Assembly: GCF_006345805.1 (NCBI RefSeq)
Contig: NW_021828179.1
Location: 1 to 9,030 of the forward strand
Direction: 5' to 3'
Source of the DNA: Octopus sinensis
Taxonomy: Eukaryota
DNA: 9,030 bases
Made by a program: the position numbers and the translations under genes. This document shows, one piece after another, positions 2,152 through 8,768 of the stretch; position 1 is the first letter of the stretch, and the number at the start of each line of letters is the position of its first letter. The notes under the pieces were generated by a model. The model did not search any database and was not told where the DNA came from. It was given only the letters and a program-made list of their open reading frames with translations.

Positions 2152-2605
2152 GTGTGTTTGTCTCACTACCATCGCTTGACAACCGGTATTGGTGCATTAA
2201 GGCGGCGGGCTAGCAGAATCGTTAGCACGTCGGGCGAAATGCTTAGCGGTATTTCGGCTGCCGTTACGTTGTGAGTTCAAATTCCGCCGAGGTCGACTTT
2301 GCCTTTCATCCTTTCGGGGTCGATAAATTAAGTACCAGTTAAGCACTGGGTTCGATGTAACCGACTTAATACCTATGTCTGTCCATGTTTGTCCCATCTA
2401 TGTTCAGCCCCTTGTGGGTAATAAAGAAATAGGTATTGGTGCATTTAAGTGTCCGTAACTTAGCGAATCGGCAAAAGAAACTGACAGCATAAGTACTAGG
2501 CTTAGAAAATACGTCGTGGAGTCGATTTGTTCGACTAAACACCCTTCAAGGCAGTGCTCTAGCATGGCCGCAGTCAAATGACTGAAACAAATAAAAGAAT
2601 AAATG
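2152..2605 (+). mobile_element. 3' half of SINE family B, interrupted by a nested SINE
   Basis: 2152-2198 and 2446-2605 join into one continuous element (...CTTGACAACCGGTATTGGTGCATT-TAAGTGTCCGTAACTTAGCG...GCAGTCAAATGACTGAAACAAATAAAAGA), homologous to the reverse complement of 1483-1623. Confidence 0.8.
2199..2431 (+). mobile_element. Full-length tRNA-derived SINE ('family A') with 14-bp TSD
   Basis: Starts GGCGGCGGGCTAGCAGAATCGTTAGCAC, has a B-box-like GAGTTCAAATTCC at 2273-2285 and an A-rich tail. TSD GGTATTGGTGCATT at 2185-2198 and 2432-2445. Paralogs at 4378-4580 and 7996-8201. Confidence 0.92.
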
Positions 2606-3436: not shown

Positions 3437-3699
3437 GTGGAGGCACGTGGCTTAGTGGTTAAGGTGTCAGCACCATGATCGTAAGATTGTGGTTTCGATT
3501 CCTGGACCAGGCGACTCGTTGTGTTCTTGAGCAAAACACTTCATTTCACGTTGCTCCAGTCCACTCAGCTGGCAAAAATGAGTAACGCTGCGATGGACTG
3601 GCGTCTCGTTCAGCTGGGGAACACATACGCCATAGAAACTGGGAAACCGGGCACATGAGCCTGGGTAGTCTTTAACAGGGCGCCTTTATTTTATTTAAA
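3437..3699 (+). mobile_element. Full-length tRNA-derived SINE with CORE-like central domain and 13-bp TSD
   Basis: A box TGGCTTAGTGG (3448-3458), B-box-like GGTTTCGATTCC (3491-3502), central GTGTTCTTGAGCAAAACACTT...CAGCTGGCAAAAATGAGTA, TTTA-type tail. TSD AAAAGTTTATATG at 3425-3437 and 3700-3712. Confidence 0.92.
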
Positions 3700-3772: not shown

Positions 3773-3871
3773 AGAAAGCTGATTCGAAGACTACATCACT
3801 GGAACAATAAACCTAGGGGCTCGGGAGGGAGACCAATAAAATAAGTACAAGGCTTAGAGAGAGTAAGTCCT
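3773..3871 (+). repeat. Inverted duplicate of 4888-4997
   Basis: Reverse complement of 4888-4997 apart from one 11-nt deletion and one substitution. Confidence 0.93.
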
Positions 3872-4377: not shown

Positions 4378-4580
4378 GCGCGGTGGCTGGCAGAACCGTT
4401 AGCACGCCCTACGAAATGTATAGCAGCATTTCGTCCGCCATTACGTTCTAGGTTCAAATTCCGCCGAGGAGTCGACTTTGCCTGTTCTCCTATCGGGGCC
4501 GATAAAACACGTACCAGGCGATGTAATCGATTTACTTCTTTCCCTGAAATTGTTGGTCTTCTGTCAAAATCTAAAACTAA
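4378..4580 (+). mobile_element. Diverged copy of SINE family A
   Basis: GCTGGCAGAACCGTTAGCACG...GTTCAAATTCCGCCGAGGAGTCGACTTTGCCT aligns with 2209-2305; no clear TSD. Confidence 0.85.
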
Positions 4581-4776: not shown

Positions 4777-4819
<43 letters not shown>

Positions 4820-4821
4820 TA
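4777..4821. repeat. (TA)n microsatellite
   Basis: Directly visible. Confidence 0.95.
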
Positions 4822-4930
4822 TTCTTTTACATCTCATTTGACTGCGGCCATGCTGGAGCACCGCCTTTAGTTGAAGAAATCGACATCAGGACTTACTCTC
4901 TCTAAGCCTTGTACTTATTTTATCGGTCTC
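4822..4930 (-). mobile_element. 3' fragment of SINE family B
   Basis: TCATTTGACTGCGGCCATGCTGGAGCACCGCCTTTAG...GTACTTATTTTATCGGTCTC is homologous to 1483-1623 and 2470-2600. Confidence 0.88.
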
Positions 4931-4945
4931 CCTCCCGAGCCCCTA

Positions 4946-5098
4946 GGTTTATTGTTCCAGTGATGGATTGGATCTGTAGTCTTCGAATCAGCTTTCTCCT
5001 TTCTGGTTTTGAGGTGCCTAATTTCTCAAGATTTGTATTTAGGTAGTGCGTTACATATTCTCAGCGCCCCATTAATTACAGGTATCACATTTGGAACT
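4946..5098 (-). pseudogene. C-terminal fragment of a restriction-like-endonuclease non-LTR retrotransposon ORF (R4/Dong-like)
   Basis: With one 1-nt frameshift the minus strand reads VIPVINGAL/YVTHYLNTNLEKLGTSKPERRKLIRRLQIQSITGTI. This matches the generic 'ipviiGalG.....l..lg......i..lQ...l.gt..i' tail of RLE elements. Confidence 0.6.
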
Positions 5099-7980: not shown

Positions 7981-7995
7981 TATGTATATATATAT

Positions 7996-8201
7996 ATTTC
8001 TTTACTACCCACAAGAAGCTAAACACAGAGGAGACAAACAAGGACAGACAAAGGGATCGACCCCAGTGCGTAACTGGTACTTCATTTATCGACCCCGGAA
8101 GGATGAAAGGCTAAGCCGACCTCGGCGGAATTTGAACTCAGAACGTAACGGCAGACGAAATACGGCAACGCATTTCGCCCAGCGTGCTAACGTTTCTGCC
8201 A
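7996..8201 (-). mobile_element. SINE family A copy lacking its first ~10 nt
   Basis: Reverse complement aligns to 2211-2431 (TGGCAGAAACGTTAGCACG...GAGTTCAAATTCCGCCGAGGTCG...CTTGTGGGTAGTAAAGAAAT). Confidence 0.9.
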
Positions 8202-8334
8202 TTTCAATATGGCTAACCCCTAAGGGTGGATGCTACTGTAGTTTTTAGCCCCAGGAGGACACACTCCTCCAGCTGGCCATAGACACACTTTCTGTGTCCT
8301 GTCAGTATTTGCAAAGGGAATCCCTACCCGTCTT

Positions 8335-8405
8335 CAACTTATGATAACACACGGACTCGAGTTTCGAGGTATTGACCTCTCGTCAGCGTGTGACAATCAT
8401 AGTTG
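8335..8405 (-). ncRNA. Type I hammerhead ribozyme (core 8348-8392, extended stem I)
   Basis: 5'-CAACU AUGAU UGU CACACG CUGACGA GAGGU(CAAU)ACCUC GAAA CUCGAG UC^CGUGUG UU AUCAU A AGUUG-3'. All conserved core nucleotides are present; GUC cleavage is predicted between 8354 and 8353. Confidence 0.95.
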
Positions 8406-8699
8406 TCGCCAGAATTAGATTTCCTTCACAAATACTTATACTTTTTCCACAGCGCCCACTGTCGCTGATATTGAAAAAGTGAAATCAAACAATGATAAAT
8501 ATCAAAGTGAGTTATATACAGTAGCGTAACACATCGTGACGTATTTTTGCCATTTCAATATGGCTAACCCCTAAGGGTGGATGCTACTGTAGTTTTTAGC
8601 CAGGAGGACACACCCTCCAGCTGGCCCTAGACACACTTTCTCTGTGTCCTGTCAGTATTTGCAAAGGGAATTCATCCTTCCCGTCTTCAACTTATGATA

Positions 8700-8744
8700 C
8701 ACACGGACTCGAGTTTCGAGGTATTGACCTCTCGTCAGCGTGTG
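8700..8744 (-). ncRNA. Type I hammerhead ribozyme (second copy; distal stem I truncated by (AAT)n)
   Basis: 45-nt core identical to 8348-8392; predicted cleavage between 8706 and 8705. Confidence 0.93.
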
Positions 8745-8746
8745 AC

Positions 8747-8768
8747 AATAATAATAATAATAATGATA
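8747..8768. repeat. (AAT)n microsatellite
   Basis: Directly visible. Confidence 0.9.

Follow-up and report, generated by a model that had tools for sequence, protein, structure and literature searches.

Anatomy of the hammerhead motif

The window, i.e. the whole 9,030-nt stretch of Octopus sinensis contig NW_021828179.1 analyzed here, is microsatellite-rich DNA of animal type; it contains several SINE-like repeats, and no gene was recognised in it. The hammerhead that an earlier sequence-only reading had placed at 8335–8405 is borne out on the minus strand, where an Rfam RF00163 match and a full catalytic core identify a canonical, extended type I hammerhead with predicted self-cleavage. The core of this copy (copy A, 8348–8392, minus strand) is organized as follows: stem I, 6 bp (8392–8387 with 8353–8348); the catalytic CUGACGA (8386–8380); stem II, 4 bp, all Watson-Crick (8379–8376 with 8369–8366), capped by loop II, UCAAUA (8370–8375); GAA (8365–8363); the helix III segment (8362–8355); and C17 (8354) of the GUC cleavage triplet. 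The cut is predicted between 8354 and 8353. The helix III segment, ACUCGAGU, is indeed the perfect palindrome claimed in that reading; its 8 nt would form 2 bp and a 4-nt loop in the monomer, and 8 bp in a double hammerhead.

Outward from the core, stem I is interrupted by an internal loop with UGU (8393–8395) on the 5' side and UU (8346–8347) on the 3' side, and resumes by pairing of a distal 5' arm (8396–8405) with a distal 3' arm (8345–8335, minus strand) that carries a single bulged A at 8340. These distal helices, also foreseen from the letters, are present in the MFE structure of the 71-mer. Loop II had been read as CAAU closed by a U-A pair; the bases stand, while the closing pair is better read, from the RF00163 alignment, as part of a 6-nt loop ending in A, the L6 position of a tertiary A-U pair to judge from PMC2553840.

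The RF00163 matches (8348–8392 and 8700–8744; 32.2 bits, E 5e-6) span the full model length and contain every core base, although at 32.2 bits they stay below the gathering score of 34, which is a curation threshold. The sequence features of a type I hammerhead are all found: the CUGANGA / GAAA / UH core, three helices, and an open end at helix I. A degenerate hammerhead pattern has two matches in the window and none in 200 shuffles. The 71-mer (8335–8405) folds with a z of -3.64, and 1 of 200 shuffles folds equally well. Because the plus strand of the 71-mer folds as well (z -3.13), the strand assignment comes from the catalytic core, not from folding. The features of an extended hammerhead like Sm-alpha are likewise seen, namely a 6-bp helix I, a 4-bp helix II, a stem I internal loop, U1.7 and a terminal loop II A.

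A tandem element of 352-nt units and its family

A second core (copy B, 8700–8744, minus strand; predicted cut between 8706 and 8705) is identical to that of copy A and sits 352 nt away, and hence the locus represents ~1.6 retrozyme units. The insertion occupies 8197–8753 (minus strand) in tandem units of 351–352 nt: the direct repeat 8193–8401 / 8544–8753 has 93.5% identity, contigs of the family begin matching at 8197, and the distal 5' arm of copy B is lost at the element end. The predicted monomer RNA between both cleavage sites (8705 to 8354, minus strand) is 352 nt long with a GC of 0.423 (42%); folded as the predicted circle it reaches an MFE of -113.2 kcal/mol and a z of -5.58, a level attained by 0 of 100 shuffles, and 62% of its bases are paired. 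The ORF list holds no frame of at least 60 aa within 8354–8705, and by inspection of this list no RT or GIY-YIG ORF was recognised in the window. Non-LTR retrozymes are defined in PMC7229834 and bioRxiv 10.64898/2026.07.22.740005 by properties that are seen in the element: tandem units of 150–450 bp, at least two consecutive type I hammerheads, non-coding sequence, GC below 50%, a self-paired predicted circle and multiple copies. The element is a high-copy non-LTR retrozyme, with activity and circle as predictions.

One end of the element adjoins an (AAT)n tract (8747–8766, plus strand), with a few bases of microhomology. The other is joined to a 5'-clipped SINE-like repeat (7995–8201, minus strand) via a 5-nt overlap at 8197–8201. 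A check for a target-site duplication gave a longest common word of 4 nt between the flanks, one end being fused to the SINE-like repeat. The overlap joins the two in the same orientation; a template switch or a small deletion at microhomology may account for it. In each of three large sequencing runs, 44–50 contigs extend ~17 nt past 8197 and then pass into an AT-rich consensus (agreement 0.63–0.68). These contig ends, with the (AAT)n flank, hint at a preferred insertion end and at microsatellite targeting, as is reported for some clades of Penelope-like elements (PLEs; 10.1101/2021.04.23.441226).

The SINE-like family has three copies in the window, 79–83% alike, at 2208–2431 (+), 4385–4517 (+) and 7995–8201 (-), with A-box-like and B-box-like words; the copy at the element is 82.6% identical to 2213–2431 and 79% to 4388–4517. 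Presumably they resemble octopus tRNA-derived SINEs. ARAGORN found no tRNA genes, and an octopus CORE-SINE exists (PMC4758252). Other dispersed repeats lie at 1000–1078 / 3588–3665, at 1484–1623 / 2437–2625 / 4794–4918 and at 3773–3871 / 4888–4997, and a self-inverted segment at 1680–1788. Rfam microRNA matches in the window were rejected as microsatellite artefacts.

Parts of the stretch are present in 20 of 24 listed sequencing runs (11 studies, 8 organism labels), none of them on record as RNA; in the other four the share is 0.00. One unit was aligned to the contigs of 4 of the 20 runs, giving 2926, 1509 and 1034 contigs in the three large runs, under three organism labels, and 34 in the fourth; these are contig counts, not copy numbers. 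Units joined head to tail are seen in runs X15 and X1, one of which is a DNA-size run. In X1, which is only guessed to be RNA, contigs run through both the tandem joint and the cleavage site; uncleaved RNA, circles and DNA would all give this, and X1 is not counted as a sign of expression. In X15, the summed depth over 8218–8241 is ~3x the depth over the ribozyme. A sister family (35–56 contigs per large run) is alike over 8197–8320; beyond that point it departs from the unit and has another 3' arm of the distal stem I.

These data bear on whether the 352-nt unit could be a pseudo-LTR or other terminal fragment of a longer PLE, or an inert satellite, an explanation that partly overlaps the other readings and that we judge very improbable. 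The combination of a full unit, a 5'-truncated copy and a microsatellite flank resembles PLE insertions (10.1101/2021.04.23.441226), and the sister family, alike over one part of the unit and divergent beyond it, is in keeping with such an origin. Against this stand the head-to-tail unit joints in X15 and X1, a motif that is canonical and not of the minimal PLE type (PMC4209133) and, by inspection, the lack of a recognisable coding ORF in or beside the unit.

The alignments also separate family-typical from private bases. The U at 8346 is missing in 97.6%, 99.4%, 99.1% and 100% of the depth in the four runs, and its equivalent is missing in copy B. The UGU/UU internal loop of the sequence-only reading is thus correct for copy A, where the extra U is a private insertion; the loop typical of the family is UGU/U. 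No variant of at least 3% is listed in the four runs for the palindrome, loop II or the catalytic bases. The two core variants listed, at 8366 and 8378, reach 3.5–7.5% in the large runs, and each gives a G-U pair in stem II. Frequent variants at 8242–8301 may stem from the sister family, whose matches leave the core uncovered. Low core variation as proof of selection was accordingly downgraded, as the sister family may inflate variation elsewhere. Copies A and B differ at 0 of 45 core positions and 13 of 168 alignment columns outside the core, a weak contrast. The genomic copy has private indels, and may be decayed.

The helix III palindrome across loci and in folding models

A pattern scan for hammerheads left the four inner bases of helix III free and fixed the two outer pairs. 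With these pairs fixed, chance yields a palindrome at 1 in 16 per independent word, and for this reason the palindrome of the present copy says little by itself. The pattern matched 39 loci in metagenomes and 2 in genome contigs, with 0 matches in viral contigs. Of the 42 matches in the 39 metagenome loci, 40 have a palindromic helix III; most of the 42 come from one family in one assembly. Three of the 42 lay too near a contig end and were dropped; the remaining 39 formed 10 clusters, reduced by BLAST to 8 (L001 merged with L005; L032 with L011 and L035), and one representative of each was aligned, gap-free, with the window copy.

In this alignment helix III is palindromic in 9/9 representatives, with four different inner words, and both strands of the helix vary at the inner positions: AU 7 / GC 1 / UA 1 for one pair and CG 5 / GC 4 for the other. 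Pairing holds in 92.1% of the cells when the whole structure is counted; slid controls reach 42.7% at most, and 0 of 500 shuffles do as well, in a test that relatedness inflates. Since the two innermost columns lie next to each other, no pair can form between them in cis, and pairing between copies is the simplest cause of their covariation. On this comparison, the palindrome looks selected. Outside its core, the unit has no similarity to any of 41 loci fetched.

Several of the loci deserve a remark of their own. L040 and L041 carry an identical repeat, on 367-nt and 476-nt scaffolds of two bacterial assemblies, with a core that fits the Rfam Hammerhead_1 consensus and a disrupted stem I; this repeat is likely animal DNA contamination. 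In L002, L021, L024 and L037, all from one metagenome assembly, hammerhead repeats lie inverted a few hundred bases apart, in a Penelope-like manner.

The same matches bear on the tertiary contact of loop II with stem I. In Sm-alpha, the last A of loop II (L6) forms a conserved Hoogsteen pair with the U next to residue 1.6 (PMC2553840), and U1.7 is described likewise in PMC11875169. Both bases are present here: loop II A at 8370, and U1.7 at 8347, next to the extra U at 8346. Position 1.7 was free in the pattern; it carries a U in 36 of the 39 matches and in 6 of the 8 representatives, and the opposite 3-nt loop strand reads U-purine-pyrimidine in 6 of the 8 other representatives; the conservation of AAUA in loop II arises by construction, as these bases were fixed in the pattern. 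From base identity we infer that the Schistosoma-type contact is present, and the earlier proposal of such a contact is supported to this extent.

We also modelled the folding of one and two copies. The energy model gives the palindrome -10.7 kcal/mol as a self-duplex and +2.9 kcal/mol as a hairpin. An isolated 71-mer prefers an inactive fold, with the active monomer 6.4 kcal/mol above the ensemble. The model, however, lacks terms for tertiary contacts and Mg2+, and the active monomer incurs a penalty in all 9 comparison loci (2.8–14.1 kcal/mol), so absolute energies say little. Two copies co-fold, at the energy minimum, into the double hammerhead, in which all 8 pairs of helix III are formed; together with the covarying palindrome of the family, this bears out the dimer competence ascribed to the palindrome. 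The double hammerhead is the co-fold minimum in only 5 of 9 comparison motifs, and not for the truncated copy B. Association in trans is weak (modelled Kd ~0.9 mM), and a trans dimer was rejected as the probable route in vivo.

For the natural two-ribozyme transcript (8760 to 8330), the cost relative to the ensemble is 2.11 kcal/mol for the cis double hammerhead and 10.3 and 11.5 kcal/mol for the single folds. The active fold in the circle costs 6.55 kcal/mol, which puts the modelled cis double form ~4.4 kcal/mol nearer its active state than the circle monomer. We then replaced the inner word of the palindrome by all 16 palindromic words and by 40 random words of the 240 non-palindromic ones. 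The double form averages 2.84 kcal/mol with the palindromes and 11.82 kcal/mol with the non-palindromes, and 0 of the 40 non-palindromic words match the natural word. The circle monomer is indifferent to the inner word (5.70 versus 5.64 kcal/mol, palindromic versus non-palindromic). Within the double fold, the helix by which each unit is closed is stem I, just as in the circle, and the two ends of the product would thus be juxtaposed.

These results can be set against a ribozyme that works only as a monomer, in which the palindrome was inherited as a by-product or is a loop of a favourable kind, and in which dimers have no role. Invertebrate motifs are active as monomers (PMC7229834, PMC7761336), the weak trans dimer fits such a view, and the 16-bp stem I, its distal part included, might close co-transcriptionally long before transcription reaches the next copy. 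Against it stand the four different inner words across families, all palindromic where chance gives 1 in 16 for each independent word, and the covariation of adjacent innermost columns that are unable to pair in cis. A monomer-only ribozyme seems to us highly unlikely.

Dimer dependence, processing and relation to known systems

That short palindromic helices III serve dimeric cleavage is not a new idea, and the accessible parts of the literature differ on how strictly it applies. Canonical metazoan hammerheads, with a 6-bp helix I, a 4-bp helix II, a 1–2 bp helix III and a palindromic loop, are described in PMC4209133 as the architecture of most metazoan hammerheads and as activated by dimerization, such that cleavage is permitted in multimers and avoided in circles. 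Thus, the proposal of the sequence-only reading on dimer activation and circle protection is already in print there nearly word for word. Widespread palindromes had been noted in PMC3088659, and the dimer mechanism is reviewed in PMC6155905 and PMC6765202. In PMC7229834, 2 bp plus a tetraloop is the invertebrate type, a strict need for dimers is tied to amphibian motifs, and retrozyme circles are probably blocked by a mechanism other than self-pairing. Dimer elements of Xenopus showed no cleavage in 8 of 9 cases (bioRxiv 10.64898/2026.07.22.740005).

Two claims on the window motif have to be qualified in this light. That 2 bp with a UCGA loop are too short to function alone is not established, given that invertebrate motifs with a 2-bp helix III cleave as monomers (PMC7229834), nor is protection of the circular monomer by the palindrome, circles probably being blocked otherwise according to the same source. 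Because invertebrate retrozymes with a 2-bp helix III cleave as monomers (PMC7229834, PMC7761336), the use of the dimer is probably facultative.

An obligate double hammerhead, in which a single motif is nearly inactive, this inactivity keeps the circle intact and, in the circle, stem II and the core would be mispaired with the palindrome, is the stricter alternative, and we consider it possible but rather unlikely. In the models, the MFE structures of both monomer and circle are inactive, with G5-A6-C7 paired with the GUC triplet and the GAG of stem II paired with the CUC of the palindrome, and helix III pairs have a probability of ~0.0. The palindrome halves CUC/GAG repeat the stem II words (8355–8386) and therefore displace stem II in the single-copy model. 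The penalty from this mispairing is nevertheless unexceptional, as the 6.55 kcal/mol for the circle falls within the range for other palindromic words (4.27–8.12 kcal/mol). The covariation of the palindrome across families would be expected of an obligate dimer, the model is the one stated for canonical metazoan motifs in PMC4209133, and the axolotl Amex2 motif, which has the same 2 bp and tetraloop with a weak helix II, is dimer-enhanced (monomer 22% in 1 h, dimer much better; PMC7229834). In the window motif, however, stem II is fully Watson-Crick and the tertiary-contact bases are in place. Monomers of coral and mussel retrozymes cleave at ~0.8/min and ~0.1/min, respectively (PMC7229834), and monomer cleavage is efficient for most invertebrate type I motifs (PMC7761336).

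Based on these observations, we propose as the probable reading that the motif is a facultative cis double hammerhead, the processing ribozyme of a non-LTR retrozyme, with cleavage as a prediction. In a multimer, two neighbouring copies would fold in cis into a double hammerhead with an 8-bp helix III and swapped stem I strands; this would be the better-folded active state, and stem I would hold the ends of the released monomer together. A host ligase of the RtcB type, the enzyme mostly responsible for retrozyme ligation (PMC7229834), would then circularise the monomers, and a PLE reverse transcriptase, in line with the PLE link of retrozymes (bioRxiv 10.64898/2026.07.22.740005), would copy the RNA back as inserts of more than unit length. 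A single copy, aided by the contact of loop II with stem I, would still cleave, more slowly. Since the double form folds better and a single copy would still cleave, the palindrome would bias cleavage to multimers without alone making the circle safe.

A bolder version can be formulated, although we regard it as unlikely: in an undescribed retrozyme family, probably of cephalopods, the palindrome would be a true switch for a 2-bp helix III of the invertebrate type, such that (i) in multimers, cleavage at both ends by the cis double hammerhead yields a monomer closed by stem I and ready for ligation, and (ii) in the circle, stem II and the core become mispaired with the palindrome, now free, and the ribozyme falls silent; the family might in addition insert into (AAT)n tracts by a preferred end. 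Such a switch, if true, would answer how invertebrate retrozyme circles survive. The motif itself is ordinary, and the value of the locus lies in one more high-copy retrozyme family common to several related organism labels. The family offers a clean test case between the view of 2014, in which a short palindromic helix III needs the dimer and spares the circle, and that of 2020, in which invertebrate monomers cleave and circles are blocked otherwise; the sister family, more abundant and with a different distal stem I arm, provides a natural comparison.

Finally, we compared the element with known systems. No octopus or cephalopod retrozyme or hammerhead family is described among the literature matches listed, whose scope excluded most subscription papers and the repeat databases, and in the accessible text of a 2026 octopus transposon review (PMC12988792) the terms ribozyme, retrozyme and Penelope occur 0 times. 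Motif and mechanism are known, and the family is probably new.

The minimal PLE hammerheads (PMC4209133) share with the element the type I topology, a palindromic helix III, a partial-tandem layout and microsatellite flanks, but differ by a longer helix II and by the absence of helix III and of the tertiary contacts, whereas the window motif is canonical; judging by this motif and by inspection of the ORF list, the hammerhead of a PLE pLTR, a minimal motif beside an RT or GIY-YIG ORF, is not what the window contains. The double hammerheads of newt and axolotl satellites and of ASBVd have a palindromic helix III that extends between tandem copies, as would that of the window motif. The window motif, with its 2 bp and 4-nt loop and its Watson-Crick stem II, differs from the newt/Amex1 type, in which helix III has a single bp and the monomer cleaves poorly (6% in 1 h; PMC7229834).

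The closest likeness in the motif itself is to Schistosoma Sm-alpha (RF00163; PMC2553840), with a 6-bp stem I, a 4-bp stem II, a hexaloop ending in AAUA and a U next to 1.6. The Rfam RF00163 consensus also has an 8-nt palindromic helix III. Differences are found in the stem sequences, in the palindrome word and in the start of loop II, which is UC here and CA in the consensus. As an element, the unit compares best with the metazoan non-LTR retrozymes (Cervera and de la Pena 2020, PMC7229834), notably the 350–390 bp family of mussels: both have a tandem unit of 150–450 bp, GC below 50%, no ORF, one canonical type I hammerhead per unit and a strongly self-paired predicted circle. The window unit differs in being known from its DNA alone and in being unrelated, outside the core, to the loci compared. 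The mussel motif is without most of the tertiary-contact bases (PMC7229834), whereas the window motif has them.
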